DNA of 64,000 nucleotides from Tubulanus polymorphus (lineage: Eukaryota; Animalia; Nemertea), in contig NC_134026.1 of NCBI RefSeq assembly GCF_964204645.1, positions 15,038,150 to 15,102,149 on the forward strand, written 5' to 3'. Every line of letters begins with the position of its first letter. Position 1 is the stretch's first letter. This document shows, in pieces, positions 14,836-63,416 of this stretch. The position numbers were made by a program, and so were the translations under genes. Below the pieces are notes generated by a model that worked only from the letters and a program-made list of their open reading frames with translations, searched no databases and was not told the DNA's origin.

Positions 14836-15124
14836 CCCGTTAGTCACTGCAAACCTATTCCAGTGTTATGTCGATCGTGTTGAATCACTTTGCTTGAGTT
14901 GAAAGAATCAGATCTTCTATCATATGATGCAACATCGGCCGAAGAGAGTTGTTGGTGTTAACTGCCCTTAACCATTTGATTTCCTGTGTTTGACATTGGA
15001 ATCCGCATAAACCCATTTGAACTGCAAAATATTCATAAAACATGAAAAACTATATTGTAAACAATACATGTATACAGTTTTCAAACATTCAACGATTTTG
15101 GATATTTGAATGAACGTTAGGCTT

Positions 15125-15545
15125 TAATAGAACGATAACCACACTATTTACAGATAAAAAGAATTTAAAAACAAGAATTTATTTATTCAATCTAAAATAT
15201 ATGTAAGACACGACGTTTCGATCTCACCCTAGAGATCATCGTCAAGTGTGAGATAAAGACTAAAAACAGGGGTATATACAGAGGAGAACAGGTTAATTGA
15301 GTAAATTGGTGAGTGAGTAAATAATTAGTGTTTGGCAAGGCATGAAGTAATATACTTAGAAAGAAGTAAATTGTGCGGAGAAAAGCCATTATTCAAATTG
15401 GTACTAATATCTGAGTGACGAGTAATTAGGGCAGACTCAACTATGTGGCGTTTAGTGTAATTGCTGGAAGTATAAATAATTTCGGCTTCATCAAAATTAA
15501 AACGATGACCAATGTCTGTAAATAGTGGGTTTTTATCTTGTGAGG
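15125..15545 (-). mobile_element. Penelope-like element 3' fragment with a short inverted tail
   Basis: 15140-15510 is a reverse-complement homolog of about 29500-29872; tctgtaaatagtggg repeated in the opposite orientation near 15515; absent from the homologous host repeat near 59975. Confidence 0.75.
15208..15249 (-). ncRNA. Minimal type I hammerhead ribozyme, variant core (UUGACGA)
   Basis: Minus strand ACAC-TTGACGA-T-GATCTC-tagggt-GAGATC-GAAA-CG-TC-GTGT. Confidence 0.6.
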
Positions 15546-16115: not shown

Positions 16116-16964
16116 AGAACGCAACTGCAAGGTTGATGAAAGTTAATTTACATATAGCCTCACCTAACCTAAACCCTATTCTTCCACGCATGTGCATAAG
16201 TAGATTATAGGAACTTACGTAGGGTTAACCTACGGAGATCACCGTACAGTCACGTACGGGTAACAACTTCGTACTTAACATGGTATTGGCTACTATAATA
16301 GGCCCAAGATCAATAACAACAAGATAGACATATAAATACCGGTGCGGTAGGCTCACTTGGTTTCCACACTTCATAACCGAACCAACTGACCAACCGTTAT
16401 AATTATTTTTGTCCCAGTAAGCACCAACCGGCACAGGCCTAACACATTTTGTCAACTGTGTTTTCCGGTAGGCTATGGATAATCATCTGATTCTTTTCTG
16501 TCGTTTCTTTTCTCTCTGAAGCTGAATTGTATGAATGTAGTCGAACGTTACTCTAGACCCGCGACTCAGCGACCTTGGCTTACAAATTTGATCAAATCAA
16601 AAATTATTTATTGACACCTTTGGTTACATGAACAGATCGGCGATATACTTAAATAAAATAGCCGCTATAACAAGAAAACGACGATATAAAAGAGGTAACA
16701 ACAAACAAATGCCCGTAAACCTGTAGGACTCGCGTACGCCGGACTCGTGAAATCTTGGACTCGGACCTGATATTCTCGGTGCATTCCTCTTTTGGACGAA
16801 TAATCGGTTCAGGTTCAATTCGATTCACAGCAACCTAGTAACTAATGTTAAGTTTCAAATCGGATAGACAGTACATTTTACAATGTACGCATTTCTTTCA
16901 CGTCAAGCTGTCAGTTGCCGAATCTCAATGAAGGTGGATTTTATTTGACGAAAATAGGCGGAAA

Positions 16965-20900: not shown

Positions 20901-22402
20901 AGAAATCTCCGTCAGTCCGAGTGCATTCTATATACATGCATTATAATGGCGACGTCATGAGCGTGCAATTCAATACAAGAATCAGTCCAGAATCCATATC
21001 GTACTAATATTCCAAATACACAAAACCGACAAGGTCTGACGTCTGCTTGGAAGGTAGGCGCTGCAGGTGCGCTTCTCATTGATTGCGGCCTAACCTTCTT
21101 CAGAAATGTGTCCCTGTCAGTGCCGGTTGCAGCATAGATTTATCCTGACCAAGCTGCTCGTCCATAAACAGGGTCTAAGGATTCCCTGGTTTCCTTCTTT
21201 CACGAAGTTCATCAACATTTCACATGTGATGTTTGTGCCAGCATCTCTGTTTGCCGAAACTAAGCTGCGCCAATTTGAAAAAATGAAATGGCAATTTGGT
21301 CACTAAGCGTTTCATATTCTCAGAAAATCCAGGAAATAAAGGTACGCACTGCGTTAACGTTAACGTCTAGAAGACATAGTTGTACTCGGGTAGAAAGAGG
21401 GGGGATCGTCCAATGCCTCGGTGTTGCCTTAAAACGTGGCAAATTCAGAGCCTTGTTGACATATAACATAACAAACATAACTTAGTGTCTTTTAACTATA
21501 GCGCCTTTCCACAATACGTGTTCAAAGCGCTATCTCCTTGGTGGTGGAGTGATCTTTAAACAGCCAGAACTTTAACATGGTTTTGAAACTGTCAACGGAC
21601 TGTAAAAATGGCGTGTTTTGGTTCGCGGTACACATACACGACACGATGCCGACACGCTCGTAATAGCTGTCTCGTTCCTCGAGAGCTTAAAAAATAATTG
21701 ATGATTTTAAACCAATATTAAAAAATCTGGATTTAATATAACTGAAAAAGGTGCTACACTTTTAGCACCAAATTTGATAGAATTAAATGGTGATTGTTAT
21801 TGGCATTGGAACGATAACTATTATTTTGAGATATCTTCTAATAAAAGTCGTGATTAAATTAAATGAAGTCATGACTTTGGTTAAATAAGAGCAATCTAGA
21901 ATTAAAATAATAAGTAATAATAATGATATAACTGATGTTTCAGCACAAGAAATAAATGAAAATAGAGGCATATTTAATCGAAGAAATTGTGATTTTTTTT
22001 AAGATAAATAATGAAAATTAAGAACCAGAAACAATTCCTAACGAAGTTATTAATTAAAAATCCAGTAGACTTGTATCAACGGAAGCTCAAACTGAAAAAC
22101 TTTTACCGGAAGGGATTTCGGATACAACGGATCAAGAAATAGAAGATTTAAATAACTATTTTTATGATAAAGGGATTAGAGAAATTGAAGGTATAAGAAA
22201 TGAAGCTGATAAAATTGTACACGAAATAAGGATAAGAGATCAGAAAATTGTGACTTTAAAAGATGAATTATTTAAATCAAATAAAGAATTAGAACAATTA
22301 AAATGAGATAGAGATTAAAAAAAAGTTATTGAAGAAATTGAATTTAAAAAAAGAAATGCATATTAAGAAGAAGAAATTGATGATTTAAAATACAATATAG
22401 AA

Positions 22403-22502
22403 ATATAGCTGCTAAGCAGCGATGACGGGTTTTCTGCAAAGCCATTCAGAATGATGGGAATTGTAGTAAATTGAAATGCCGATACATAGAATAAAGTGCA
22501 TC
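22403..22502. mobile_element. Terminal fragment of the same Helentron-like family
   Basis: atagctgctaagcagcgatgacgggttttctgcaaagccattcag matches 13156 and the reverse complement at 61683. Confidence 0.7.
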
Positions 22503-28482: not shown

Positions 28483-29881
28483 TCTTTCGACGCTGTTTCC
28501 TTGTTCACAAATATACCATTGGAACCAACTCTCAATTTACTCCCGGACTCCAATCTTGATCTCCCAATTCCCGTAGAATGTTTACTTGAACTTTTGGAAC
28601 TCTGTACAACCAATCTATATTTCCAATTCCAAGACAAATTCTATGAACAAATTTTCGGTTTCGCTATGGGTAACCCATTATCCCCCATTTTGGCTAATCT
28701 TTTTTCATTGAACACTTTGAATCCGAAATTCTCCCTAAGTACGCTGGCTCTAAACCTAACTTTTGGATTAGATATGTTGATGACATTCTGTGCTTAGTTT
28801 CTGATAATTTTGATCTTACCTCTTTTATCGACTTCATCATCTCCCAATATCCATCTTTGAAATTCACTTTTGAATGGGAACAAAATGACCAAATTCCGTT
28901 TTTAGATGTTCTAATTCACAATAAATTTTCTCATTTGATTTTCTTAGTCTACCGTAAACCGATCAACGCCGAGGCATACCTTCACTTCTTTTCGTTTACT
29001 GCTAAATAAATCAAAATTGGTCTTGCTCAAGGCCTCTTTCTACTACGGATCTACGATGAAACCTTCCTTTCGGCTGAATTTGAACATATATCCAACTCTC
29101 TTAGAAAATTGGCTAACCCTGATCACATTTTCAGAATAGCTATTTCTAAGGCTAAACGTACTTTCTTCAATTCTAAACCTCCAGAAAATTAAAAAAACCC
29201 ATTTCAGAGTTCATTGTAGTTCCGTATGTACCTGTTTTGGAAAAGTTTCGTCACTCTCTCCCTTTATTGGATAAACAAATCATTTTCACGTATGAAAACA
29301 AAATTATTAAGACTTGGGTTAAAAACAATCAATCTTAACCATTGGACTGCGGAGTTAACAAAATTCCTTGTTTTGGCTGTGATAAAATTTACTTTGGAGA
29401 AACTGGTCGTGATTTAAAAACTCGAATTTCGGAACACAAAAAGGATATATCATAAATCAAAAACCGGCTAGTGGCGTAGCCAATCACGTTTGGAACACTG
29501 GTCATCGTTTTAATTTTGATAAAGCCGAAATTATTCATACTTCCAGCAATTACACTAAACGCCACATAGTTGAGTCTGCCCTAATTACCCGTCACTCAGA
29601 TATTAGTACCAATTTAAATAATGGCTTTTCTCCGCATAATTCCCTTCTTTCTAATTATATTACTTCATGCCTTGCCAAACACTAAATATTTACTCACTCA
29701 CCAATTTACTCAATTAACGTGTCCTCCTCTGTATATATACCCCTGTTTTTAATCTATATCTCACACCTGACGATGATCTCTAGGGTGAGATCGAAACGTC
29801 GTGTCTTTTATATATTTTTGATTGAATAAATAAATTCTGGTTTTTAAATTCTTTTAATCTGTAAATAGTGGGATTTTATCT
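28483..29881 (+). mobile_element. 5'-truncated Penelope-like retroelement (RT + GIY-YIG), decayed
   Basis: SFDAVSLFTNIP, FYEQIFGFAMGNPLSPILAN, WIRYVDD, IPFLDV, VYRKP; endonuclease KIPCFGCDKIYFGETGR.LKTRISEH. Confidence 0.9.
29763..29804 (+). ncRNA. Minimal type I hammerhead ribozyme
   Basis: Stem I ACAC/GTGT, core CTGACGA, stem II GATCTC/GAGATC, GAAA, minimal palindromic stem III, GTC cleavage triplet; lies in the Penelope 3' repeat. Confidence 0.85.
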
Positions 29882-30399
29882 TAAAATAAACCCAACCATT
29901 ATTATTTTCTTATTTAAATTATCATAGAATTTCGGTAATTTGTTAAAATTTAATGTTTCTAAATCCAAAGTTTCTATTTTACCATAACCTAATTTATTAT
30001 TATAGATATTATAAAAACTATTAGATGGTATGGGAAGTGTACAATATTCTACGATCATTTTAGGGCAAGGAAGTGATCTTATTTTTCCAAGTTTTGTTCT
30101 GAAATCAGAATGAATTATATCTATATTAAATTCATTACAAATTTTATAAAACTTTGATAAATTGATATTATTATCTAATTCTTTAAAATATCTAGATCCT
30201 GGCAAAGGGGTCTCTAATTCATTTAATATTAATCTTATTTGAAAATAAGTATGGAATCTAAATACACTTTGAATTAATTTATATTTAGAATTATTCAAAT
30301 GATCATTCCAACTAATTCCACATCCTGTTGTTGCACAATAAACTGCAAAATTTAATTGGTTCTGCCAATATTTCATATTAGATTTTAATAACCATTGTT
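29876..30399 (-). pseudogene. C-terminal part of a Polinton-associated ORF (WQNQLNFAVYCATTGCG), split by the 30400-42033 insertion
   Basis: Joins ORF 42034-42256 in frame across the TSD: KDEKQ|WLLKSNMKYW. Confidence 0.8.
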
Positions 30400-30803
30400 A
30401 GTAATAGGGATAATGGGCTTTCATACCAAAGGTCGAACGGTCGAGCCCATTAAAAAACAAAATATTAAAAGTAATTAAAAACTATAATATATTTTCATAA
30501 CCGCGTGCATTTTATATTAAAACTAAATATTTATTCTAAGATATCAATAATATAAAAAGCATATTGTATTAAATCAATTGGTCGCTCCACTTCGCTACCG
30601 CTCCGCTCCGCGACCAATTGATTTAATTACAATACACAAATTCAAATAATCAAATATATTCAAATGATAATAATTATTCTATTATTCAACTGAAATGCAC
30701 GCGGTTATGAAAATATATTATAGTTTTTAATTACTTTTAATATATGTTATTAATGAACTCGATCATTAAACCTTTGATATGAAAGCCCATTATCCCTATT
30801 ACT
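30400..30803. repeat. 404-bp imperfect terminal hairpin (mirrored at 41630-42033)
   Basis: AGTAATAGGGATAATGGGCTTTCATA at 30400 and its reverse complement ending at 30803; inner stem attaaatcaattggtcgc / gcgaccaattgatttaat. Confidence 0.9.
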
Positions 30804-30883
30804 CTTAAAATATTCATATATATGAATAACATTTAAATCATTGAACTTCTAAAATCAATTTTAATAAAAAATATAGTATTGAA

Positions 30884-31144
30884 ATGGAAGCAAATAAGTA
30901 CTACTGCCCAACATGTTATATCGATATAGATAAATCCCAAAAAGCAAGACACAATAAAACTAGAACACATTTAGAAAATAAATTGAAACTAGAGTATTCA
31001 GAACAGTTAACAAAAGGAAAGAAATTTATTGAATTATGGAACACTGATCCAAATAATGAACAATACGTTGAGGATACGATGTTTATACTAGAAAATCATT
31101 CTATTTTAGCCTATATACATTCAATGTACAGAGCTATAGAATAA
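30884..31144 (+). CDS. Small zinc-finger protein, 86 aa
   Basis: YYCPTC......KARHNKTRTH; open in both arms. Confidence 0.7.
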   Translation: MEANKYYCPTCYIDIDKSQKARHNKTRTHLENKLKLEYSEQLTKGKKFIELWNTDPNNEQYVEDTMFILENHSILAYIHSMYRAIE

Positions 31145-31829
31145 ATCTATAAATTCACAGCTGTTACAGTTGTTACTATAACGACGAGACATTATGACAC
31201 GTCATAATCAGAAACGTGTAGAATATTCTAGAAAAGGCGCGCCGGAACTAGATGACGTGGCATAATCAACGACGTGTTCATTCTAGAAATCGCCCCGGAA
31301 ATGGACATATGCTGTAATATTGTGCTCAGGATATTCTATCTTTCGAAACGAAATAAGGAGTTTATAGTATACAATTATAAATCTAAATGTTTGTTATAGT
31401 TATTAAGGTTATTAAATATGAAACCTTTAGATATATTTAAGTGTATTTAGTATATCTTTTAGATAGCTAGAGTTACCGCTAATATCTTTTAGATTAATAA
31501 AACGCCATACGCATCAAGAAGCGATAGAGAAACTCAAGATACTCTTTCTGCCTGAGGAATCAACAGCAATGGATATCAAACCAATAGAATCACCAAAAGA
31601 TCAACGAAGAAACTATATAAGAATTTCAAAAACATTAAGACTCCAATGATTAAGTTTAACATTTGTTGATGTAGTTAAATATTTACCAGCAATTGAAAAA
31701 ATGTTTGTAATTATAAATTGTATTTATAGAAATCAAATGATGTATTAGAAGAAATGACTGAACAACTTGTATAATGTATTGTGTAAATCTGATTTGTGAA
31801 TTTTTATGTTCAGTCGTTTCTATTATGTT

Positions 31830-32140
31830 TAACGCATGCGCATTAAGCAAAACCGGCCATAAATGGCCGCATGTGACACATGTAACGCATGTGACGAGGG
31901 ACATGAATGCGTTCGAATTTTCTATGTTCAGTTGTTTCTATTTTACAGAATTTATAGAATGAATATACAATTATGATTAGCGCATGCGTATTGATCAAAA
32001 CCGGCCATAAATGGCCGCATGTGACACATGTAACGCATGTGTTGTTTCTATTTTACAGAATTTATAGAATGAATATATAATTATGAATAACGCATGCGCA
32101 TTAAGCAAAAACGCTCCTGTATGTCCGCATGTGACGCGGG
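31830..32140. promoter_or_regulatory. Triplicated GC-rich motif block upstream of the HNH gene (candidate enhancer or origin)
   Basis: TAACGCATGCGCATTAAGCAAAACCGGCCATAAATGGCCGCATGTGAC in about 3 copies; includes CC(A/T)6GG and GCATGCGC. Confidence 0.45.
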
Positions 32141-32284
32141 TATTGTAACTGGTATTATTTAGATATCAAGGAATCGAAACAACTTATCAAAAGCAACGAA
32201 GAATGAAAAAGGATGACGTTAGTCGAAGAAATGGAAGAGGATTATAAAATATTAACCAATTTAGTAAAAAAATACGTATAATAA

Positions 32285-32959
32285 ATGGAACCAGAACAAC
32301 CACAAATTATCAATATTACAAATAACACTGGCGTTATAAACATATACTACAAGAAGTGTTCTAAATGTGAATTAGATAAATCATTAACAGAATTTAGTAA
32401 GCGTAAGATTAGCAAAGATGGTTTTCAATATTATTGTAAAACTTGTATTAAACTATATACCAAACAATATCGAGAAGATAATAGAGAATCTTATAATGAT
32501 TATATGACAGAATATATGAGAGAAAGATATCAAACAGATCTTAATTTTAGATTGAAACAATGCTTAAGATCTAGATTAACACAATTATTCAACAAAGAAA
32601 CACATTCAGAAACATTATCTAATTTATTGGGTTGTTCAGATGAATTTCTCAAATCATGGATTATATTTCAATTCGATGATAAAATGAATATAGATAATTA
32701 TGGGGATTATTACCATATTGATCACGTGTTACCAATATCTAAATTTAACATGAATGATGAATACAATAAAAAACTTATTTGGAATTGGAAAAATTTAAGA
32801 CCTTTAGAAAAGAAAGAAAATCAAATCAAATCTAATAAACTAGATTTACAATTATATTTGGAACAGTTGAATAAAGCAAGGAAATTTATTGATTGGTGGA
32901 ATAGTAACCCACAGAATGAACAATACGTTGAGGAATTTGATATCAAGGATCCGAAATGA
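32285..32959 (+). CDS. HNH-family endonuclease with N-terminal Cys4 zinc module, 224 aa
   Basis: KKCSKC....L.EF......DG....CKTC; YHIDHVLP...WKNLRPL...EN..KSNK. Confidence 0.8.
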   Translation: MEPEQPQIINITNNTGVINIYYKKCSKCELDKSLTEFSKRKISKDGFQYYCKTCIKLYTKQYREDNRESYNDYMTEYMRERYQTDLNFRLKQCLRSRLTQLFNKETHSETLSNLLGCSDEFLKSWIIFQFDDKMNIDNYGDYYHIDHVLPISKFNMNDEYNKKLIWNWKNLRPLEKKENQIKSNKLDLQLYLEQLNKARKFIDWWNSNPQNEQYVEEFDIKDPK

Positions 32960-33261
32960 CTTATCTGGACAGTTATAGTTACTGCTCCTAATAGATAGAC
33001 AATAGTAGTGAGATATCAAATAGAATTCAAATAAAATATATTAAAAAAACAATAACTTCAACTAGCTAATGAATTCTATTATATTTTTAATATTTTCTTT
33101 TCAAAAGAGAATACTTTATATTTTGAATAGATTCAAATAGAAATTCTTTAAATTCAAATAGCTAGTATCAGTAGTCAATACTAGAATTCTTTAACTTTAA
33201 CTAGCTAGTATCATTTGAAGAATACTTATAATACTATTCTTATTAAATTTCTCTAATATAA

Positions 33262-33864
33262 ATGTCAAAGAAATCTAATAAGGATAGTATTGATATTGAA
33301 AAAACATTAGATGATTTGGGTATTAGTGATAATAAAGATACAGTTGTTTCTAATTCTATTCAAGTTAATAACAATATAGATTATGAATACTATTTATATT
33401 GTAAGCATCATCTTGAATTATTAATTGCTGGTGGAAAAACTAAAGAGTTTTTAACTAAGACTATTACTTTTCAAGAATTAGATGCTATGAAACCCGATCA
33501 AGTAATAAAATATTTTAAGATTTATGAAGAGGCAAGATTATCTAAAATAAATGATTCTATTTCTAATGGTATTGTCAAATGTTATTCTAAGTTATGTAAC
33601 CAGTTAATACCAATTGATGATGAAAATAAATTATATAATGATTTGAAAAATGACTATTTAGTTATGACTGAATTACAAAAATGGGTTGGATATGCTTCAT
33701 TTCAATTAGGATCGGTTATGACATTGATTTCTACTGGAGTTATAACATTTTCGAATATCAAACCTATGGAATATAAATCAGGTAAGAACGAAACAGATGT
33801 ACTACAACAAAACGTCGAAACAGAAAATGAATCAGAACAAAAATTAACTAAAATAAATGAGTGA
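33262..33864 (+). CDS. Polinton-associated hypothetical protein, 200 aa
   Basis: Intact ORF in a tightly packed cluster with integrase and ATPase. Confidence 0.7.
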   Translation: MSKKSNKDSIDIEKTLDDLGISDNKDTVVSNSIQVNNNIDYEYYLYCKHHLELLIAGGKTKEFLTKTITFQELDAMKPDQVIKYFKIYEEARLSKINDSISNGIVKCYSKLCNQLIPIDDENKLYNDLKNDYLVMTELQKWVGYASFQLGSVMTLISTGVITFSNIKPMEYKSGKNETDVLQQNVETENESEQKLTKINE

Positions 33865-34051
33865 TGGAGTTAAGAAAAAGCCTAGATCTGAGAAACAAAT
33901 TAAATGGGCAAGAGAATTAGGTAAAAGATCTTCAGAATCAAAAAAAGCTAAGAAAAAGAAATTAACTGATATAAATGAATCACCTGATATTGATTCAAAT
34001 AATAATCCATCTAATTCTTCTAATGCTGGAAGTAATTATAAATTAAAGTGA
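33857..34051 (+). pseudogene. Deletion-truncated copy of the 114-aa protein
   Basis: About 205 bp missing near 34045 relative to the right arm. Confidence 0.75.
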
Positions 34052-35084
34052 AGTATCATATTCTAACGTTTCAGAATTATGGAATAAAATTAAATCTGAT
34101 AATAATATAAAATATAGTGAATTAAAATCATGGTTACAAAATCAACCCACATATAATATTCATAAAAAGATGGATAAAAAATATTTAACAAGAAAAGTAA
34201 TGGTTTCATATATTGACCAACAATGGCAAGCTGATTTAATTGACATGAAAAACTTAGAAGAATACAACAAAGGATATTTCTGGATACTAAATGTTATAGA
34301 TATATTCAGTAGATACGCATGGAGTATCCCGATTAAAAATAAAACTGGTATAGAAGTTACAAATTCTTTCAAATTAATATTTAAAGAAGCTATCCCAGAT
34401 AAAATACAATTTGATGAAGGTAAAGAATTTTATAACAAACATTTCAAAAAACTATTATCTGATAACGATGTAGAATATTTTTCAACACATTCAGATAAAA
34501 AAGCATCTGTTATAGAAAGATTTAATAAAACATTGAAAACTAGAATGTGGAAATATTTTACTGCTAATGAAACATACAAATATATCGATGTGTTAGATGA
34601 TTTAGTGAAAGGTTATAATAATTCTAAACATAGTTCTATAAATATGAAACCTATACAAGCTAGAAAAGAAGAAAATTCAGAAATAGTTTGGAATAATTTA
34701 TATGGTGCGTTTGTTACACATGATTTTGGAGAACCTAAATTTAAAATAGGACAACATGTTAGAATTTCTAAATATCGAAAAACATTTTATAAAGGTTATA
34801 CCCCTAATTTTACTGAAGAAATATTTAAAATTAAAAAGATAATATCAACTAAACCATTTGTTTATAAATTGTTTGATTTAAAAGATGAAGAAATATTAGG
34901 TTATTTTTATGAACAAGAATTATCATTAGTACCAAATCCAGATGAAATAGAATACAAAATAGAAAAGGTATTAAAAACTAAAACATTACGCGGTAAGAAA
35001 TATTCTCTGGTGAAATATAAAGGATATGATGATAAATTTAATGAATGGATTTTATCTAGTAAAATTAAAAGAATAAATGAATAA
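34047..35084 (+). pseudogene. Polinton rve integrase, left-arm copy lacking its start
   Basis: Matches 37142-38227 except that the native start is removed by the deletion. Confidence 0.85.
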
Positions 35085-35688
35085 AGATTTGTTTATATTT
35101 GAACCACATAATATGTTAGTTACTGGAGTTACAAATTGTGGTAAAACACACTTCATATTATATTTATTAGAAACTATTTATCAGAATCATTTTGATAATA
35201 TAATATTATTCTGTCCTACATATGAAATGAATAAAACATATAATAGAGATATAGTTAAGATAAAAAAGTTTATTATATTAGACCCTAAAACAGTAAAAGG
35301 AAATTTAGATAATTGTATAAAAATTGCATTAGATATTTATAAAGGATCTAATACATTATTTATTATTGATGATTGCGCAAATTTACATGATTCTAAAATT
35401 AGAGAAAGTGAGTTATGTTATTTAGCTTTCTCTGGTAGACATTTTGGGATAACAACATGGGTTTTAAATCAGAAATATAATTCAATTGTGAAAGATTTTA
35501 GAGAGAATATAAGATTTCTAGTTTTATTCTACAACAAAGATAAAAAATCTATGCAACAATCATTGGAAGAAAATCAAATTATACCTACTGAATTACATGA
35601 TGAATATATGAATAAATTAAAGAATAATAAAGGTTCAAAATTATTAATGAGATTACAATTTCCCTATGAATATAAATTTATAAAATAA
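35077..35688 (+). CDS. A32/FtsK-HerA-type DNA-packaging ATPase, 203 aa
   Basis: Walker A GVTNCGKT, Walker B LFIIDD, SGRH, LNQ, REN motifs. Confidence 0.9.
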   Translation: MNKDLFIFEPHNMLVTGVTNCGKTHFILYLLETIYQNHFDNIILFCPTYEMNKTYNRDIVKIKKFIILDPKTVKGNLDNCIKIALDIYKGSNTLFIIDDCANLHDSKIRESELCYLAFSGRHFGITTWVLNQKYNSIVKDFRENIRFLVLFYNKDKKSMQQSLEENQIIPTELHDEYMNKLKNNKGSKLLMRLQFPYEYKFIK

Positions 35689-36006
35689 AATCCTAATTCA
35701 AAATATTATAGAATTCACTGTATACTGATGGATGAGTGGATGAATTGGATGAATTGGATGAGTGGATGAATGGATGAGTGTAATAATATATATATTTTAC
35801 TTTTTAACACATAAATTGGAAGAATAGTATGAGTATAAATACAATATTTATATTCTTTATTAAATTTAACACAATATATATATATATATATATATATTAT
35901 TAAAATAATATTTAAATATAATATAAAATTGATAAAATAACTTCAAATCAAACTCTTACTGTTTTAAAAATAAAAAACATATGTAAATTATATATTATTA
36001 CACTAT

Positions 36007-36810
36007 AAATGTCATATAATAATAAATATATTTTTATAAAATAATAAAATGATAAATAATAAAATGATAAATATATTTTTATATAATAATAAAATGATAA
36101 ATAATAAATGTCAGATAAATAATAAAATGATAAATGTCATATAATAATAAATATATTTTTATAAAATAATAAAATGATAAATGTCATATAATAATGAATA
36201 TATTTTTATAAAATAATAAATATATTTTTATAAAATAATAAAATGATAAATAATAAATGTCATATAATAATAAATATATTTTTATAAAATAATAAAATGA
36301 TTAATAATAAATGTCATATAATAATAAATATATTTTTATAAAATAATAAAATGATAAATAATAAATGTCATATAATAATAAATATATTTTTATAAAATAA
36401 TAAAATGATAAATAATAAATGTCATATAATAATAAATATATTTTTATAAAATAATAAAATGATAAATAATAAATGTCATATAATAATAAATATATTTTTA
36501 TAAAATAATAAAATGATAAATAATAAATGTCAGATAATAATAAATATATTTTTATAAAATGATAAAATGATAAATGTCATATAATAATAAATATATTTTT
36601 ATAAAATAATAAAATGATAAATAATAAATGTCATATAATAATAAATATATTTTTATAAAATAATAAAATGATAAATAATAAATGTCATATAATAATAAAT
36701 ATATTTTTATAAAATGATAAAATGATAAATAATAAATGTCAGATAAATAATAAAATGATAAATGTCATATAATAACAAATATATTTTTATAAAATAATAA
36801 AATGAGAGAT
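36007..36810. repeat. AT-rich 54-bp tandem array
   Basis: Unit aaatgtcatataataataaatatatttttataaaataataaaatgataaataat (e.g. gtcata at 36421 and 36475). Confidence 0.9.
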
Positions 36811-37116
36811 AATAAAATAATAAAAAGATAATATAATAAGCCAGAATTTTCTAGCTTATTATATATATAATATATATGATGTATATTGATATATCTTATA
36901 ATAAATAATATTTTAATGTAAAAATTTTTACATTTAATATTTTAATTATAGAATATCAATATACATCATATATATTATATATATAATAAGCTAGAAAATT
37001 CTGGCTTATTATATTATCTTTTTTTATTATTTTATTATCTCTCATTTTATTATTTTATAAAAATATATTTATTATTATATGACATTTATCATTTTATTAT
37101 TTATCTGACATTTATT
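36731..37116. repeat. Central loopless palindrome, the symmetry axis of the element (36924|36925)
   Basis: aatgtaaaaa|tttttacatt at the apex; bulged AT-rich segment beside it, near-perfect stem further out. Confidence 0.9.
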
Positions 37117-37141
37117 ATGTGGTTCAAATATAAACAAATCT

Positions 37142-38227
37142 TTATTCATTTATTCTTTTAATTTTACTAGATAAAATCCATTCATTAAATTTATCATCAT
37201 ATCCTTTATATTTCACCAGAGAATATTTCTTACCGCGTAATGTTTTAGTTTTTAATACCTTTTCTATTTTGTATTCTATTTCATCTGGATTTGGTACTAA
37301 TGATAATTCTTGTTCATAAAAATAACCTAATATTTCTTCATCTTTTAAATCAAACAATTTATAAACAAATGGTTTAGTTAATATTATCTTTTTAATTTTA
37401 AATATTTCTTCAGTAAAATTAGGGGTATAACCTTTATAAAATGTTTTTCGATATTTAGAAATTCTAACATGTTGTCCTATTTTAAATTTAGGTTCTCCAA
37501 AATCATGTGTAACAAACGCACCATATAAATTATTCCAAACTATTTCTGAATTTTCTTCTTTTCTAGCTTGTATAGGTTTCATATTTATAGAACTATGTTT
37601 AGAATTATTATAACCTTTCACTAAATCATCTAACACATCGATATATTTGTATGTTTCATTAGCAGTAAAATATTTCCACATTCTAGTTTTCAATGTTTTA
37701 TTAAATCTTTCTATAACAGATGCTTTTTTATCTGAATGTGTTGAAAAATATTCTACATCGTTATCAGATAATAGTTTTTTGAAATGTTTGTTATAAAATT
37801 CTTTACCTTCATCAAATTGTATTTTATCTGGGATAGCTTCTTTAAATATTAATTTGAAAGAATTTGTAACTTCTATACCAGTTTTATTTTTAATCGGGAT
37901 ACTCCATGCGTATCTACTGAATATATCTATAACATTTAGTATCCAGAAATATCCTTTGTTGTATTCTTCTAAGTTTTTCATGTCAATTAAATCAGCTTGC
38001 CATTGTTGGTCAATATATGAAACCATTACTTTTCTTGTTAAATATTTTTTATCCATCTTTTTATGAATTTGATATGTGGGTTGATTTTGTAACCATGATT
38101 TTAATTCACTATATTTTATATTGCTATTATCAGATTTAATTTTATTCCATAATTCTGAAACGTTAGAATATGATACTTCACTTTCTGGGTTATAATATAA
38201 ATCTCTTAAATATTGTTCTTTTTTCAT
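37142..38227 (-). CDS. Polinton/Maverick rve integrase with C-terminal chromodomain-like region, 361 aa
   Basis: DDE residues in WQADL, QFDEG, VIERFN; PKFKIG..VRISK; YKIEKVL...LVKYKGY....NEWI. Confidence 0.93.
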   Translation of the reverse strand: MKKEQYLRDLYYNPESEVSYSNVSELWNKIKSDNSNIKYSELKSWLQNQPTYQIHKKMDKKYLTRKVMVSYIDQQWQADLIDMKNLEEYNKGYFWILNVIDIFSRYAWSIPIKNKTGIEVTNSFKLIFKEAIPDKIQFDEGKEFYNKHFKKLLSDNDVEYFSTHSDKKASVIERFNKTLKTRMWKYFTANETYKYIDVLDDLVKGYNNSKHSSINMKPIQARKEENSEIVWNNLYGAFVTHDFGEPKFKIGQHVRISKYRKTFYKGYTPNFTEEIFKIKKIILTKPFVYKLFDLKDEEILGYFYEQELSLVPNPDEIEYKIEKVLKTKTLRGKKYSLVKYKGYDDKFNEWILSSKIKRINE

Positions 38228-38233
38228 CTTATT

Positions 38234-38578
38234 TTAATCCATTAATAATAATTTAGATTTAGTTTCATTTGATTTATTTTCTGGTATGATAGGTTTATCA
38301 TCGGAATCATATTTATCATCAGATTTGAATTTTGATTTATATATTACACCGGATAATATAATAACTGTTACTAATCCAATTGTAATATATAATTTATAAT
38401 TACTTCCAGCATTAGAAGAATTAGATGGATTATTATTTGAATCAATATCAGGTGATTCATTTATATCAGTTAATTTCTTTTTCTTAGCTTTTTTTAATTC
38501 TGAAGATCTTTTACCTAATTCTCTTGCCCATTTAATTTGTTTCTCAGATCTAGGCTTTTTCTTAACTCCATCACTCAT
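38234..38578 (-). CDS. Basic 114-aa protein with one predicted TM segment
   Basis: KKPRSEKQ..WARELGKR; hydrophobic LYITIGLVTVIILSGVIY. Confidence 0.7.
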   Translation of the reverse strand: MSDGVKKKPRSEKQIKWARELGKRSSELKKAKKKKLTDINESPDIDSNNNPSNSSNAGSNYKLYITIGLVTVIILSGVIYKSKFKSDDKYDSDDKPIIPENKSNETKSKLLLMD

Positions 38579-39171
38579 TTATTTTAGTTAATTTTTGTTC
38601 TGATTCATTTTCTGTTTCGACGTTTTGTTGTAGTACATCTGTTTCGTTCTTACCTGATTTATATTCCATAGGTTTGATATTCGAAAATGTTATAACTCCA
38701 GTAGAAATCAATGTCATAACCGATCCTAATTGAAATGAAGCATATCCAACCCATTTTTGTAATTCAGTCATAACTAAATAGTCATTTTTCAAATCATTAT
38801 ATAATTTATTTTCATCATCAATTGGTATTAACTGGTTACATAACTTAGAATAACATTTGACAATACCATTAGAAATAGAATCATTTATTTTAGATAATCT
38901 TGCCTCTTCATAAATCTTAAAATATTTTATTACTTGATCGGGTTTCATAGCATCTAATTCTTGAAAAGTAATAGTCTTAGTTAAAAACTCTTTAGTTTCC
39001 ACCAGCAATTAATAATTCAAGATGATGCTTACAATATAAATAGTATTCATAATCTATATTGTTATTAACTTGAATAGAATTAGAAACAACTGTATCTTTA
39101 TTATCACTAATACCCAAATCATCTAATGTTTTTTCAATATCAATACTATTCTTATTAGATTTCTTTGACAT
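38571..39171 (-). pseudogene. Frameshifted mirror copy of the 200-aa ORF
   Basis: 2-nt deletion in an A run near 38998 (ggaaac vs ggaaaaac). Confidence 0.75.
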
Positions 39172-39473
39172 TTATATTAGAGAAATTTAATAAGAATAGT
39201 ATTATAAGTATTCTTCAAATGATACTAGCTAGTTAAAGTTAAAGAATTCTAGTATTGACTACTGATACTAGCTATTTGAATTTAAAGAATTTCTATTTGA
39301 ATCTATTCAAAATATAAAGTATTCTCTTTTGAAAAGAAAATATTAAAAATATAATAGAATTCATTAGCTAGTTGAAGTTATTGTTTTTTTAATATATTTT
39401 ATTTGAATTCTATTTGATATCTCACTACTATTGTCTATCTATTAGGAGCAGTAACTATAACTGTCCAGATAAG

Positions 39474-40148
39474 TCATTTCGGATCCTTGATATCAAATTC
39501 CTCAACGTATTGTTCATTCTGTGGGTTACTATTCCACCAATCAATAAATTTCCTTGCTTTATTCAACTGTTCCAAATATAATTGTAAATCTAGTTTATTA
39601 GATTTGATTTGATTTTCTTTCTTTTCTAAAGGTCTTAAATTTTTCCAATTCCAAATAAGTTTTTTATTGTATTCATCATTCATGTTAAATTTAGATATTG
39701 GTAACACGTGATCAATATGGTAATAATCCCCATAATTATCTATATTCATTTTATCATCGAATTGAAATATAATCCATGATTTGAGAAATTCATCTGAACA
39801 ACCCAATAAATTAGATAATGTTTCTGAATGTGTTTCTTTGTTGAATAATTGTGTTAATCTAGATCTTAAGCATTGTTTCAATCTAAAATTAAGATCTGTT
39901 TGATATCTTTCTCTCATATATTCTGTCATATAATCATTATAAGATTCTCTATTATCTTCTCGATATTGTTTGGTATATAGTTTAATACAAGTTTTACAAT
40001 AATATTGAAAACCATCTTTGCTAATCTTACGCTTACTAAATTCTGTTAATGATTTATCTAATTCACATTTAGAACACTTTTTGTAATATATGTTTATAAC
40101 GCCAGTGTTATTTGTAATATTGATAATTTGTGGTTGTTCTGGTTCCAT
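39474..40148 (-). CDS. HNH endonuclease, mirror copy
   Basis: Same protein as 32285-32959. Confidence 0.8.
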   Translation of the reverse strand: MEPEQPQIINITNNTGVINIYYKKCSKCELDKSLTEFSKRKISKDGFQYYCKTCIKLYTKQYREDNRESYNDYMTEYMRERYQTDLNFRLKQCLRSRLTQLFNKETHSETLSNLLGCSDEFLKSWIIFQFDDKMNIDNYGDYYHIDHVLPISKFNMNDEYNKKLIWNWKNLRPLEKKENQIKSNKLDLQLYLEQLNKARKFIDWWNSNPQNEQYVEEFDIKDPK

Positions 40149-41288
40149 TTATTATACGTATTTTTTTACTAAATTGGTTAATATTTTATAATCCTCTTCC
40201 ATTTCTTCGACTAACGTCATCCTTTTTCATTCTTCGTTGCTTTTGATAAGTTGTTTCGATTCCTTGATATCTAAATAATACCAGTTACAATACCCGCGTC
40301 ACATGCGGACATACAGGAGCGTTTTTGCTTAATGCGCATGCGTTATTCATAATTATATATTCATTCTATAAATTCTGTAAAATAGAAACAACACATGTGT
40401 CACATGCGGCCATTTATGGCCGGTTTTGATCAATACGCATGCGCTAATCATAATTGTATATTCATTCTATAAATTCTGTAAAATAGAAACAACTGAACAT
40501 AGAAAATTCGAACGCATTCATGTCCCTCGTCACATGCGTTACATGTGTCACATGCGGCCATTTATGGCCGGTTTTGCTTAATGCGCATGCGTTAAACATA
40601 ATAGAAACGACTGAACATAAAAATTCACAAATCAGATTTACACAATACATTATACAAGTTGTTTAGTCATTTCTTCTAATACATCATTTGATTTCTATAA
40701 ATACAATTTATAATTACAAACATTTTTTCAATTGCTGGTAAATATTTAACTACATCAACAAATGTTAAACTTAATCATTGGAGTCTTAATGTTTTTGAAA
40801 TTCTTATATAGTTTCTTCGTTGATCTTTTGGTGATTCTATTGGTTTGATATCCATTGCTGTTGATTCCTCAGGCAGAAAGAGTATCTTGAGTTTCTCTAT
40901 CGCTTCTTGATGCGTATGGCGTTTTATTAATCTAAAAGATATTAGCGGTAACTCTAGCTATCTAAAAGATATACTAAATACACTTAAATATATCTAAAGG
41001 TTTCATATTTAATAACCTTAATAACTATAACAAACAGTACTTACATTTAGATTTATAATTGTATACTATAAACTCCTTATTTCGTTTCGAAAGATAGAAT
41101 ATCCTGAGCACAATATTACAGCATATGTCCATTTCCGGGGCGATTTCTAGAATGAACACGTCGTTGATTATGCCACGTCATCTAGTTCCGGCGCGCCTTT
41201 TCTAGAATATTCTACACGTTTCTGATTATGACGTGTCATAATGTCTCGTCGTTATAGTAACAACTGTAACAGCTGTGAATTTATAGAT

Positions 41289-41549
41289 TTATTCTATAGC
41301 TCTGTACATTGAATGTATATAGGCTAAAATAGAATGATTTTCTAGTATAAACATCGTATCCTCAACGTATTGTTCATTATTTGGATCAGTGTTCCATAAT
41401 TCAATAAATTTCTTTCCTTTTGTTAACTGTTCTGAATACTCTAGTTTCAATTTATTTTCTAAATGTGTTCTAGTTTTATTGTGTCTTGCTTTTTGGGATT
41501 TATCTATATCGATATTACATGTTGGGCAGTAGTACTTATTTGCTTCCAT
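41289..41549 (-). CDS. Zinc-finger protein, mirror copy
   Basis: One amino-acid difference from 30884-31144. Confidence 0.7.
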   Translation of the reverse strand: MEANKYYCPTCNIDIDKSQKARHNKTRTHLENKLKLEYSEQLTKGKKFIELWNTDPNNEQYVEDTMFILENHSILAYIHSMYRAIE

Positions 41550-42033
41550 TTTAATACTATATTTTTTATCAAAATTGATTTTAGAAGTTCAATGATTTAA
41601 ATGTTATTCATATATATGAATATTTTAAGAGTAATAGGGATAATGGGCTTTCATATCAAAGGTTTAATGATCGAGTTCATTAATAACATATATTAAAAGT
41701 AATTAAAAACTATAATATATTTTCATAACCGCGTGCATTTCAGTTGAATAATAGAATAATTATTATCATTTGAATATATTTGATTATTTGAATTTGTGTA
41801 TTGTAATTAAATCAATTGGTCGCGGAGCGGAGCGGTAGCGAAGTGGAGCGACCAATTGATTTAATACAATATGCTTTTTATATTATTGATATCTTAGAAT
41901 AAATATTTAGTTTTAATATAAAATGCACGCGGTTATGAAAATATATTATAGTTTTTAATTACTTTTAATATTTTGTTTTTTAATGGGCTCGACCGTTCGA
42001 CCTTTGGTATGAAAGCCCATTATCCCTATTACT

Positions 42034-42256
42034 ATTGTTTTTCATCTTTCAATTTTTTAAGATTAATTAAATATACATGAAATATATTTTCCATCTTTGC
42101 ATTTAAATTATTAGTTGCAGTAACATAAATATCTAAATTAATAAATGAACTTAAAACTTCATTTCTATATGAAATATCTTTATCAAAATTTATTGCAGGA
42201 ATATTATATTTAATTGATTTATTATATTGAAAAGCTTTTGGAAAACTATCTACCAT
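42034..42256 (-). pseudogene. N-terminal part of the split Polinton ORF
   Basis: In frame with 29876-30393 after removing the insertion and one TSD copy. Confidence 0.8.
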
Positions 42257-42269
42257 TTATATAATAAAT

Positions 42270-42703
42270 AAATTAATAATTTATTAATTCTTTTAATAAT
42301 TTATCTTGTTCTTCAACTGTTATATTACCATTTAAACTTATTATATAATCTAATGTATTTTTTAATTTATTAATTTCTTTTATATTATGATTTTTTCTTT
42401 ATATCTTTTTATATTTAATTTTGAACTTATGCCAGTTAATACACTTGAACATAAACCCAAAGCTCCAATTCAGATAGCTTAAGGTGTTAATGGTGAGAAT
42501 AATGCTAGAAATGTTATTACAGAACTAATTTTAACTGAACTACTAATAATAAAATAGTATATAATTTTACTTTTTAAATATTTTTTCTTTTTAAGTTTTA
42601 AATCATTTTCAAATTCTAATATTTGTTTTTCCAAATATAATTTTAATTTAGTTTTATTTATATCTAGATGAATAATATCAATATTATCAACTTTATCAAC
42701 CAT
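42270..42703 (-). pseudogene. Small coiled-coil/TM Polinton ORF, decayed
   Basis: Coiled segment then hydrophobic IIYYFIISSSVKISSVITFLALF; premature stop. Confidence 0.5.
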
Positions 42704-42722
42704 TTATTTAGAAAAGATATTA

Positions 42723-43154
42723 CTAATTAGTAAATTTATAAGAAACAAATAATACAATAACTGTTCCACCTATAATCCAAATTATTTCATATTTCTGCTG
42801 TTCACTACTTGGTGTATAATAATCTGATAATTTAGGTTTATATAGATGTAATTTTTCACGATTTGTTACTGCGTTATATAAACTCATAGCTTCGATTGAT
42901 TGAAAATCTCTATGTGTAATTTTCTGATTATATAATTCTTTATTGATGTTATCCATATAGTTTTGCCTCTTTTCCCTATATTCTTCTGCAGCTTTATTGT
43001 ATTTCTTTAATGCTAAGTTATGTCTTCTTTGTTCTCCTAATGAACTATTTTTACCAATATGCTTAAATAAATAACCACCACCTGTAAATGCTAAAGCGTT
43101 AACAATTGCCGATCCTATAATAGTTATAATTGCAGATGTAAAAAAATTATGCAT
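42723..43154 (-). CDS. Polinton-associated 143-aa protein
   Basis: GSAIVNALAFTGG.YLF, E.RRHNLAL, PKLSDYY.PS..Q.KYE and a C-terminal TM; resembles a small-ORF family I recall from invertebrate Polintons. Confidence 0.65.
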   Translation of the reverse strand: MHNFFTSAIITIIGSAIVNALAFTGGGYLFKHIGKNSSLGEQRRHNLALKKYNKAAEEYREKRQNYMDNINKELYNQKITHRDFQSIEAMSLYNAVTNREKLHLYKPKLSDYYTPSSEQQKYEIIWIIGGTVIVLFVSYKFTN

Positions 43155-45643: not shown

Positions 45644-45945
45644 TGGCCATAAGGTAATGTTTTTATTCCATCACCCAAAACATATCTTTTATCATCAAAT
45701 GGATTTAAACTAGTTTTTTCAACTTCATTAATGTACATCTCGTGATCTTCTGATCTCAAACAATTCATTTTGTGTTTCATGACAATTGAGTTATATAAAC
45801 ACTTTATATAATCTTGAAATACTATATGTTTATCCACCACATGGTTTGTTATTCCTTTTAACTTTTTAGCTTCATGGTATTTTGTTCTATAACTATACAT
45901 TTTACTTCTTATCCCAACAAATTCAATCATTTCATCACCCCCTAA
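45640..45945 (-). pseudogene. Protein-primed PolB, C-terminal part
   Basis: EFVGIRSKMYS, KKLKGI, K..LNPFDDKRY......TLPYGH. Confidence 0.9.
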
Positions 45946-52396: not shown

Positions 52397-54093
52397 TGTA
52401 TTAATCATAATAATATCAATGGTAGGTCAACCATTCATAATCCAAATTCATATTGCTTTGAAATACAATGAGATCATTTTAGTTATTATTGCGCAATTCA
52501 GTTGAAGAAGATCGCAGAATTTTTTAAGGATTTAATTGATATCATAATCAAGATAAGTACATGTATATGAAGTTACTGTAGATATTTTATTACTGCTGCA
52601 CTTTGTACATATTCTTTTTTGTGACGTTTACTTGACGAGATTTTATCTGCTGATTTTAATTAGGTTAATTAGTAATTTTACAATAGTGGTCAAGATAGAA
52701 AAGGAATCTATTTATTACAATGAATAGATCTAGTTGGTGGAAAACTGCCCTGAAAATTTCATGTAATTATCTCTTAAAATAAAAAAGTTATGTCAAAATA
52801 ACTGAAAATTCTTACCCGAAATGGTCACGACTTATCCTATTGTTTTACCTTTTAAATTAATGACCGTAATTAGCACGATTTTCCAATACTGAAACTATCA
52901 TAACTTTCTTATTATTTGAGCTAGAAGGTTGAACCAGGGCTCATTTGAAAGCTCTTTTTAAATGCTATCTAATAGCGTTTCCATAATTAAGATTGGAGCA
53001 TTTTGAAATGGATTGTAGCCTACGTACACAGCTTTTGTTAAAAGTGAAAAGGCTTCCTTACCTTACCGCTGTCGCCGATACAATCCGTGTGATATCCTTC
53101 AGCTCACTTCAATCTCCAGATACTGCATGGGAATTTTGATAAATCCACGTTATAAAGGCACTGTCGAGCCGTAAACATCGGAAATTTGGCTCCGTTCAAT
53201 TAGTAGCCATGTTGTGTTTTCTTTCCGAAATTTCTCTCTTCTTTTCGAGGAAGAGCTATCGAATAATTCCCTCTCTTCTCCACAATCAATTTCAAAGTCA
53301 ATTTTATGAATTTATTGCTCAGCGGGTCCGAGTCAAATAGTTTACGAGTCCGGCGTTTGCGTTTCTGACAGGTTTACGGGCATTTGTTTGTTAACTCTTT
53401 AATATTTTTGATTTCTTATTATTCCGGTTATTTCATTTAAGTATATTGCTGATCAGTTCATGTAACCAAAAGCGTCAATAAACAGATTTTTGAATTGATC
53501 AAGTTTAAATCAAGGTCGTTGAGTCGCGGAGGGCTACTAGAATAACGTTCGTCTCAGAGAGAAAACAAACGACAGAAAAGTATCAGGTGATTATCGATAG
53601 CCTACTACGGTACACACAGTTGACAAACAGTGTTAGGCCTGTGCCGGTTAACCAACGTTGGTGCGTACTGGGAATAAATATACTGGTTGGTCAGTTGGTT
53701 CGGTTGTGAAGTGTGGAAGTTAAGAAAGCCTACCTACCGGTATTTATTTGTCTATATCATATGTAGGCCTATTATATTGTACCCAATAGCATTTTAAGTA
53801 CATAGTTGTTACTCGTGTGTGACTGTACGGTGATCTCCACAGGTTAACCGTACGTGAGTTCCCTACTAACGCCGTACGTGAGTTCCTAGTAGCCTATACC
53901 ATTTTAAGTACATACGAAGTTGTTACCCGTACGTGACTGTACGGTGATATCCACAGGTTAACCGTTCGTGAGTTCCCTAAAAACGCCGTACGTGAGTTCT
54001 CATAATCTGCCAACACGCATGCGTGAAAGAATAGTTTGGGTTAGGTGAGGCTAGGCTATTTGTAAATCAAATGTCATCCACCCTGCAGTTACG

Positions 54094-59755: not shown

Positions 59756-59852
59756 GAATTGATTGCCAAAGCGATTATACAACGAGCAATGTGATTGGTG
59801 CCGCCAGTTTTCGTTCGGATAGTGCGCATGTAACTGCGCACATGGTCGTTTA

Positions 59853-59918
59853 TGGCAGGGGTTCGTGCCGTGGCTGAGTGTAGCGATGCCATCAGGTTCG
59901 AGTCCCTGCAGAGGGAGG
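59853..59918 (+). mobile_element. tRNA-like SINE head (second, inverted copy at 54588-54641)
   Basis: gtgccgtggctgagtgtag...ggttcga(g/a)tcc..gggagg at both sites. Confidence 0.5.
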
Positions 59919-63365: not shown

Positions 63366-63416
63366 TTAGGGTTTTCTGTTACATCACAGAAAACCCTATT
63401 GAGATTCGCGTGTTTC

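Follow-up and report, generated by a model that had tools for sequence, protein, structure and literature searches.

The AT-rich palindrome at positions 36729-37118 of the window, the 64-kb stretch of Tubulanus polymorphus DNA analyzed here, is the center of an 11,636-bp unit (30399-42034 in the assembly), in which the left part of a Maverick/Polinton-like element is present twice, in opposite orientations and with slight divergence between the copies. Our current hypothesis, which we regard as evenly poised between right and wrong, is that a defective Maverick/Polinton-like element had its left part, the side with the integrase, duplicated in inverted orientation over 11.6 kb, that the 390-bp palindrome marks the middle of this duplication, and that the duplication likely arose by fold-back at a native AT-rich hairpin. 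The palindrome is probably not a dedicated hairpin chromosome end. The evidence consists of the structure of the palindrome, the content and the ends of the surrounding unit, and the gene context of related elements.

The palindrome, a strandless feature of 390 bp, was delimited with an inverted-repeat finder and by folding of the single DNA strand. The finder returned one arm pair of 107 nt at 36729-36835 and 37012-37118 (95%) and a further pair within the same palindrome at 36779-36892 and 36953-37066. Folded as a single DNA strand, the region 36700-37150 forms one long hairpin with an energy of -161.9 kcal/mol (z = -30), and none of 100 shuffled sequences was as stable. The axis lies between positions 36924 and 36925 and has no loop, with five A standing opposite five T. 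Within 32 nt of this apex the hairpin carries four one-base bulges and two mismatches, and in all four bulges the surplus base is on the left arm. The stems from 33 to 196 nt from the apex (164 nt) are near-perfect and contain one mismatch and one 2-nt indel. The A+T content is 88.5% over the full 390 bp and reaches 93.8% in the bulged central 64 nt (36893-36956).

The left side of the palindrome merges with a direct tandem array of a 54-bp unit on the plus strand (36005-36811), in which 12 units were found within three mismatches and some variants are shortened. TRF assigned a period of 54 with 10.2 copies and 95% matches to 36208-36754. A search with the 54-nt unit, allowing three mismatches or fewer, recovered 12 plus-strand matches between 36005 and 36811 and a single inverted match at 37036-37089, while 0 of 100 shuffled sequences gave any match. 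The array is therefore asymmetric and lies to the left of the apex only; the right side holds about 1.5 mirrored units, after which coding DNA begins at 37113-37118. Because all 12 left units are direct and the sole full inverted unit lies right of the apex, the right stem is best read as a mirror copy and not as part of a native two-sided array. The GC content of 36005-36728 is 6.4%. Between the array and the preceding ATPase gene lies a non-coding AT-rich spacer of 316 bp (35689-36004, strandless, GC 17.7%), which contains an 8-bp microsatellite at 35729-35780 and an (AT)n run. The sequence-only reading had described a 54-bp array running into a near-perfect stem of about 150 bp, followed by a bulged, nearly pure A/T segment with a loopless apex at 36924|36925. 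The array, its passage into the stem and the composition and geometry of the tip are all borne out, with the refinement that the array is one-sided; the stem is real as well, and its length has to be revised to about 164 bp.

The palindrome is flanked by the two arms of a large inverted repeat, the left at 30399-35113 (plus strand) and the right at 37113-42034 (minus strand), which were defined by inverted-repeat search, ORFs, Pfam and arm alignment. The two arms carry the same genes in mirrored order. The outermost is ORF86, which encodes a zinc-finger-like protein of 86 aa (left 30884-31144, right 41289-41549), followed by ORF224 (224 aa; left 32285-32959, right 39474-40148), in which we read an HNH-like motif ourselves, without a Pfam match. 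Two ORFs of no assigned family come next, namely ORF200 (left 33262-33864, right 38571-39008, the latter shortened to 145 aa) and ORF114 (left 33857-34051, truncated; right 38234-38578). The innermost gene common to both arms encodes an rve-chromo integrase, which is N-terminally truncated on the left (34170-35084) and full-length on the right (37142-38227). The integrase belongs to the rve family (PF00665, E = 6.2e-9) and has a chromodomain-like tail that falls below the Pfam cut-off. The left arm alone continues into a gene for an A32/FtsK-type packaging ATPase (35077-35688, plus strand; Pfam Pox_A32 PF04665, E = 1.1e-10). The right arm stops 29 bp beyond the integrase stop, and 1615 bp of the left arm (35114-36728) are missing from it. 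At this right-arm junction (37113-37118), the inverted ATPase gene, at codon 12 or so, is fused to an inverted array unit through the 6-nt microhomology ATAATA.

The unit has several features of Maverick/Polinton elements, namely an rve integrase, an A32/FtsK ATPase, and terminal inverted repeats with a short flank duplication. Neither the protein-primed family B polymerase nor, as far as the ORFs searched go, the double jelly-roll capsid genes of such elements were found within it. A tblastn search found no polymerase gene inside 30399-42034, and the same search found no match inside the unit to the relatives' ORFs of 408, 414, 318, and 277 aa that lie beside the ATPase or the integrase; for the capsid genes, this search represents a single lead, as only the 414-aa ORF, from the relative L002, carries one. 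Since the unit has no polymerase and no match to the four flanking ORFs, its gene content identifies it as a non-autonomous derivative of a Maverick/Polinton-like element.

Aligned with each other, the arms differ by 11 substitutions and five indels of 9, 9, 2, 206, and 3 bp. The 206-bp gap lies in the left arm at 34045 and, relative to the right arm, removes the integrase N terminus and the end of ORF114, and the 2-bp indel shortens ORF200 of the right arm. Different genes are thus broken on the two sides, the integrase and ORF114 on the left and ORF200 on the right. These differences bear on the concern that the inverted structure was created by sequencing or assembly, either as a fold-back chimeric long read or as a mis-join through the AT-rich array. 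Inverted duplications are a known long-read artefact, and the center of the unit is repetitive with 88-94% A+T. Even so, we consider an artefact very unlikely, given that the arms have diverged and different genes are broken in each, that the outer ends of the unit abut the collinear halves of one interrupted gene (see below), and that the homology at the right-arm junction is 6 nt, less than an assembler would need to overlap sequences.

The divergence of the large arms also provides a yardstick for the palindrome. The 32-nt tip contains six difference events, compared to 0.11 expected from the large-arm divergence (P about 2e-9), while the outer stems (164 nt) contain two events, compared to 0.56 expected (P 0.11). 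The outer stems could therefore be as old as the large arms, as their divergence fits. A Foldback (FB) transposon was also considered as a source of the structure. FB transposons have long terminal inverted repeats that are made of short tandem repeats on both sides. This candidate was rejected on the grounds that the array is one-sided and the arms consist of coding DNA.

The outer ends of the unit are well defined. A 24-nt terminus motif is present at 30399 (plus strand) and 42034 (minus strand), with one-mismatch copies at 30804 (minus) and 41629 (plus). The left terminal unit of 406 bp (30399-30804, plus strand) is bounded by copies of the terminus motif that are about 115 bp long and inverted to each other, and the right terminal unit, likewise of 406 bp (41629-42034), is bounded in the same manner by inverted repeats of about 115 bp. 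As DNA, the 406-bp terminal unit folds with -121.3 kcal/mol (z = -20). Directly outside the two termini lies a putative 4-bp target-site duplication, TTGT, read from the flanks at 30395-30398 and 42035-42038. We estimate the chance of identical 4-bp flanks in DNA of such composition at roughly 1%. It should be noted that the target-site duplication usually quoted for Polintons is 6 bp, compared to 4 bp here.

The DNA beyond the termini reveals where the unit was inserted. The left flank contains the C-terminal fragment of an outer-element gene (29879-30397, minus strand), which aligns from residue 75 of a 442-aa ORF in the relative L007, and the right flank contains the N-terminal fragment (42035-42256, minus strand), which aligns to residues 1-73 of the same ORF. 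The counterpart in L007 is uninterrupted. Because the flanks are two collinear halves of one gene that is intact in L007, the 11,636-bp unit is a precise insertion into a gene of another, older element copy, which was split between residues 73 and 75. Polymerase fragments of this outer copy are found at 45646-45945 and 61682-63367. A giant palindrome spanning the window was rejected, since the flanks 29879-30397 and 42035-42256 are collinear gene halves and not mirrored, and the other inverted pairs are centered elsewhere. The 64-kb window also contains a Pao-type retrotransposon peptidase fragment and, in our own reading of the ORFs, a reverse-transcriptase-like fragment. Together with the mostly arthropod look-alikes of the relatives' polymerase (see below), these fragments suggest an animal host.

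The same ends speak to the idea that two separate element copies were inserted head-to-head at one place. Nested insertions are frequent in the 64-kb window, which makes such an event conceivable; nonetheless, no further terminus of the right copy lies near 37113, a single TTGT pair surrounds the whole unit, and a mirrored stem of 194 bp is common to the inner ends of both copies. We therefore regard two independent insertions as scarcely credible.

Relatives of the element were collected through the integrase, for which 2054 relatives were found at E <= 0.001, and a 26-row integrase alignment led to 80 metagenome loci. The closest loci have a GC content of 0.20-0.22 and 82% nucleotide identity across the integrase and the ATPase, and the ATPase shares 80-82% amino-acid identity with those of L001, L002, L004, and L007. 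In L001, L002, and L004 the integrase is followed by the ATPase and then by two or three convergent ORFs of 277-431 aa. In L007 the order is integrase, ATPase, a tandem-repeat region, and, on the same strand, an ORF200-like gene. The locus L003 carries a 1305-aa polymerase, an HNH-like ORF, ORF200, ORF129, and the integrase, in that order. Because the relatives continue past the ATPase into further ORFs and L003 has a polymerase on the integrase side, the gene orders place the post-ATPase site in the middle of the predicted genome in this family.

The nature of the L003 polymerase was examined by two routes. Its Atlas look-alikes (score 0.98), which are mostly from arthropods, carry PF03175, the organellar/viral family B polymerase, in 19-47% of members. 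By sequence, Pfam gave only zinc-finger matches and a weak Endonuclease_7 match, NCBIfam gave none, and PDB sequences gave only zinc fingers. The look-alikes point to putatively protein-primed ends. For the 414-aa ORF of L002, the Atlas look-alikes fall in viral clusters in which 10-24% of the members have Capsid_N or DJR-like domains, and we treat its identity as a capsid protein as a lead only. Several searches returned nothing: no integrase relatives were found in viral_contigs with either a single protein or the 26-row alignment, the region 30000-43000 had no megablast match in the phage collection, and exact copies of the stem motif, a piece of the array unit, the apex, and the terminus motif each numbered 0 in viral_contigs. 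The apex and the terminus motif likewise had 0 hits each in genome_contigs, and the terminus motif had 0 in the 80 metagenome loci of the relatives.

The site past the ATPase gene was then compared across four loci with at least 80% ATPase identity and 11 more distant loci. In L001, L002, and L004, the 160 nt past the ATPase stop are the most stable DNA fold of the locus (rank 1 of 38, 45, and 29 windows, respectively), and in L007 they rank third of 70 windows. The hairpin of L001 has a perfect 30-bp stem (z = -8.7), and that of L002 and L004 has z = -4.5. As L002 and L004 are near-duplicates, the rule stands on three lineages. In L007, the first 141 nt after the ATPase fold weakly (z = -1.1; 27 of 200 shuffles were as good), and the region directly past the ATPase (9082-9359) is a 108-bp tandem repeat of 2.5 copies that is also an imperfect palindrome with 72-75% self-complementarity. 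Among the 11 more distant loci, a strong post-ATPase fold was present only in the near-duplicates L021 and L022 (rank 2 of 44), and the other nine ranked from 7 to 61. The relatives' hairpins have no sequence in common with the palindrome center of the window, and the apex of the window lies 1236 bp past the ATPase stop, compared to 25-40 bp for the hairpins of L001 and L002. On these folding predictions, a hairpin-prone and sometimes repeat-bearing post-ATPase site is a trait of the close lineage and not of the wider family.

With the unit ends and the relatives in hand, the architecture of the palindrome can be compared to a hairpin genome end. One-sided bulges at the tip next to a clean stem are the trace expected of an unfolded, imperfectly paired hairpin. 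Vaccinia hairpins, as described in PMC8956199, are AT-rich and incompletely paired and adjoin tandem repeats; they appear as inverted repeats in concatemer junctions, which the virus resolvase cuts beside a conserved resolution site. The window resembles this general design of poxvirus and asfarvirus telomeres and junctions (PMC8956199) in its AT-rich, incompletely paired tip, with four one-sided extra bases and two mismatches, and in the adjoining clean stem and tandem array. In addition, hairpin priming from terminal palindromes has been proposed in a 2026 preprint for some endogenous virophages and polinton-like viruses (10.64898/2026.07.28.741278). The palindrome might thus represent a true hairpin end that was unfolded or replicated, as in a poxvirus or asfarvirus junction, or the closed end of a half-genome replicon whose other end was protein-primed.

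Several observations make a hairpin end a very improbable explanation. The integrated unit ends at its terminal repeats with a flank duplication, 5.1-6.5 kb from the apex, so that the palindrome lies away from the element ends. The homologous position in the relatives falls in the middle of the genome, with the ATPase gene on one side and convergent genes, including the capsid lead, on the other. The array is unmirrored, with 12 direct units on the left and one inverted unit on the right, and the right arm does not have the 1615 bp. The look-alikes of the L003 polymerase suggest protein-primed ends. Moreover, neither a resolution site nor a resolvase came to light: none of the 47 protein queries (12 + 24 + 11) matched a Holliday-junction or telomere resolvase Pfam family, and the sole resolvase-type match, Endonuclease_7, lies inside the L003 polymerase and scores 21.8 bits against a Pfam cut-off of 23.6. 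A second copy of the apex was found neither in viral_contigs nor in genome_contigs. The sequence-only reading had proposed a dedicated hairpin end as opposed to a random fold-back point. The non-random part of that proposal stands, in that the post-ATPase site is the most stable fold in L001, L002, and L004, and the dedicated end does not. Its interpretation of the axis as a concatemer junction finds no support, given the terminal repeats at 30399 and 42034 with their TTGT flanks and the mid-genome position of the homologous site.

In the fold-back model that we favor, a single strand ending near the AT-rich hairpin downstream of the packaging-ATPase gene would fold back on itself and serve as the primer for its own copying. 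In this model, the bulged central 64 nt would be the original, imperfect short inverted repeat, and the near-perfect stems and the arms would be the copy made from it, giving a molecule with two identical left ends. This is inferred because the differences cluster at the tip while the divergence of the stems fits the age of the arms. A later deletion of 1615 bp between ATAATA repeats would have left the right arm without the mirrored ATPase gene, without the spacer, and with little of the array, turning a perfect palindrome of 13 kb into a 390-bp palindrome plus spaced repeats; the deletion is proposed because the right-arm junction shows the ATAATA microhomology. Slow decay would form the last stage. 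Fold-back may have preceded integration, in a linear genome replicating as a free molecule, or may have accompanied the repair of an integrated copy. The flanks do not fix the timing, as the two ends of a normal element carry identical terminal repeats and such an element would have the same flank duplication, and TTGT flanks would be equally expected around a normal element that was rearranged after insertion.

Several points weigh against this fold-back model. Those noted above are the distance of the apex from the ATPase stop, the missing sequence match to the hairpins of L001 and L002, the weak fold of the first 141 nt in L007, the three lineages behind the hairpin rule, and the low ranks in most of the distant loci. 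Hypermutation of a palindrome center would give an identical picture, and the pre-existence of the central 64 nt is inferred from one copy, no parent copy that lacks the mirror half having been found in the collections searched. Stabilizing deletions at palindromes are also known to remove the center, and here the center survived. In support of the model, the formation of palindromes from a short inverted repeat beside a DNA break has been shown in yeast and hamster cells, as reported in PMC7999016.

The features of the post-ATPase site can also be explained in another manner, in which the 390-bp palindrome is itself a native cis-element, such as a bidirectional transcript-end signal, a packaging signal, or an origin by the ATPase gene, and represents an older small fold-back. 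The large arms would then be the product of a single later event at ATAATA (37113-37118), either a copy-back or a break-induced template switch, in which an inverted copy of the left part took the place of the right part of the element. L007 has its tandem-repeated imperfect palindrome (9082-9359) straight after the ATPase gene, hairpins occupy the same place in L001 and in L002/L004, and a single switch at a 6-nt microhomology accounts for the asymmetric center without a separate deletion. The two accounts are equally economical and need the same total number of events. However, none of the native counterparts is near-perfect over 390 bp, being either short or self-complementary to only 72-75%, and the stem divergence (two events in 164 nt) is in line with the age of the large arms, as expected had one event made both. 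The cis-element and the template switch, taken jointly, are in our judgment a possible but rather unlikely history.

A further reading carries the fold-back model to a free viral genome. We put forward, tentatively and as the less probable extension, that the unit is a fossil snap-back defective genome of a Maverick-type virus, which was made as free linear DNA and then integrated as a palindromic dimer. A programmed hairpin after the packaging-ATPase gene would have served as the strand-switch point, producing half a genome that was protein-primed at one end and closed by a hairpin at the other. Replication would have converted this into a palindromic dimer with two identical left ends, which the element's own integrase may have put into another Maverick copy. 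Snap-back defective viral genomes are a recognized class and are defined as symmetric palindromes in PMC13506859. As in the snap-back and copy-back genomes outlined in that source, the unit carries one genome end in two inverted copies, has lost the rest of the genome, and contains a template-switch junction, and its parent family has a polymerase with look-alikes of the protein-primed type. It differs in that only an integrated, decaying chromosomal copy is present here and in that its center is asymmetric by 1.6 kb. Comparable snap-back cases are the 'hairpin plasmid' derived from the yeast killer plasmid pGKL1 and the DNA of adenovirus incomplete particles, which contains long inverted repeats.

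Other known systems resemble parts of the unit. Palindromes formed from short inverted repeats, as covered in PMC7999016, likewise have an imperfect repeat at the center and perfect copies outside, with a predicted hairpin-capped intermediate; here, a virus-like mobile element served as the substrate, and element termini bound the product on both sides. Hairpin-capped extrachromosomal DNA, treated in PMC10766183, is a related case. The human PATRR, as characterized in PMC7999016, is also near-perfect, several hundred bp long, spacerless, and about 90% A+T; its sequence is unrelated, and the palindrome here lies inside a mobile element and is flanked by kilobase-long inverted arms. By analogy, PATRR-like sequences would readily extrude cruciforms. 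Endogenous virophages and polinton-like viruses, in the account given by a preprint (bioRxiv 10.64898/2026.07.28.741278), are a related element class that contains a palindrome with a proposed hairpin role. Those palindromes are described there as 52 nt long and located at the extremities beside flank duplications, whereas the palindrome of the window is internal. Their nearer counterpart in the window is the pair of 406-bp terminal units at 30399 and 42034 and not the central axis.

Taken together, the components of the locus, namely a Maverick-type element, fold-back palindrome formation, and an AT-rich palindrome, are of known kinds. What is new is the combination, that is, a palindromic derivative that lacks a polymerase, has element ends and a flank duplication, is centered on a lineage-specific hairpin site, and is nested in another copy. 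Literature searches, judged mostly by titles and the openings of abstracts, turned up no palindromic or fold-back Maverick derivative. The locus also provides a warning for annotation, since an AT-rich palindrome with a tandem array inside such an element is, alone, no proof of a telomere.

The unit is a concrete and datable example of how Maverick/Polinton-type elements decay and rearrange, in which a large inverted duplication came to be centered on a hairpin-prone intergenic site by the packaging ATPase gene while the ends and the flank duplication were kept. If the fold-back took place in a free replicative form, then these elements resemble other linear DNA replicons in making snap-back defective genomes. 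This would have a bearing on how the elements replicate and on how hosts gain long hairpin loci against them. Should the unit be a fossil snap-back genome, it would be the first sequence evidence that Maverick-type elements make and integrate genomes like those of defective interfering viruses, and its 4.7-kb inverted arms could supply double-stranded RNA to host silencing of the family.

Each end of the 11.6-kb unit is formed by a 406-bp piece (30399-30804 and 41629-42034), which has inverted terminus-motif copies of ~115 bp each as its borders and a GC-rich second hairpin mid-way. The fold energy of the 406-bp piece is -121 kcal/mol (z = -20). Because neither piece is accompanied by a flank duplication of its own, the two look like part of the end structure of the element rather than a miniature element in its own right. 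In L044, a more distant metagenome relative, an inverted pair of ~300 bp (1-295 vs 551-854, 81% identity) that resembles the 406-bp terminal unit is located at the start of the locus, 2.2 kb upstream of the integrase.

Between ORF86 and ORF224, the unit contains a 1.1-kb non-coding stretch with GC-richer tandem repeats of 101-110 bp in 1.9 copies (31931-32135 and 40298-40493); in the related metagenome locus L003, this place is taken by a 3.9-kb polymerase gene. Further repeats are found directly after the ATPase stop, which is followed by an 8-bp microsatellite of 6.2 copies (35729-35780) and, beyond it, by an (AT)n run (~35876-35897). The close relative L007 encodes a deoxynucleoside kinase (10343-10981, minus strand; PF01712, E = 1.7e-31), whereas the unit in the window does not. 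Some related integrases of 423-511 aa (P0114, P0116, P0118, and P0119) carry, besides rve and chromo, a precomputed match to PF08398, a phospholipase A2-like domain of the parvovirus coat N-terminus.

The L003 polymerase (145-4059) has a C2H2 zinc finger at its N-terminus and a weak match to Endonuclease_7, a T4 endonuclease VII-like family, at residues 555-591 (E = 1.7e-4, below the Pfam cut-off). The same pairing with PF03175 was found in Atlas clusters of arthropod proteins. In the window, the polymerase of the outer element, the older copy that the 11.6-kb unit interrupts, is preserved as a minus-strand remnant in two pieces (45646-45945 and 61682-63367), which match residues 1180-1279 and 971-1180 in the L003 polymerase and are separated by 15.7 kb. 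This intervening DNA has a higher GC content (0.35-0.40), contains DEAD / Helicase_C ORFs (58242-59934) as well as a 676-aa ORF with no family match, and is probably another nested insertion.

Three further inverted pairs with 82-95% identity are present in the window (13153-14920 vs 60171-61684, 16210-16701 vs 53388-53862, and 15137-15515 vs 29495-29875). Their centres differ, and they are most simply explained as dispersed repeat copies that do not belong to the central AT-rich palindrome. Lastly, an isolated ORF fragment on the plus strand (22028-22405), opposite in orientation to the outer element, shares 54-56% identity with a 318-aa ORF of L002 and a 485-aa ORF of L007, both of unknown function. 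Decayed copies of elements form a patchwork in this region.
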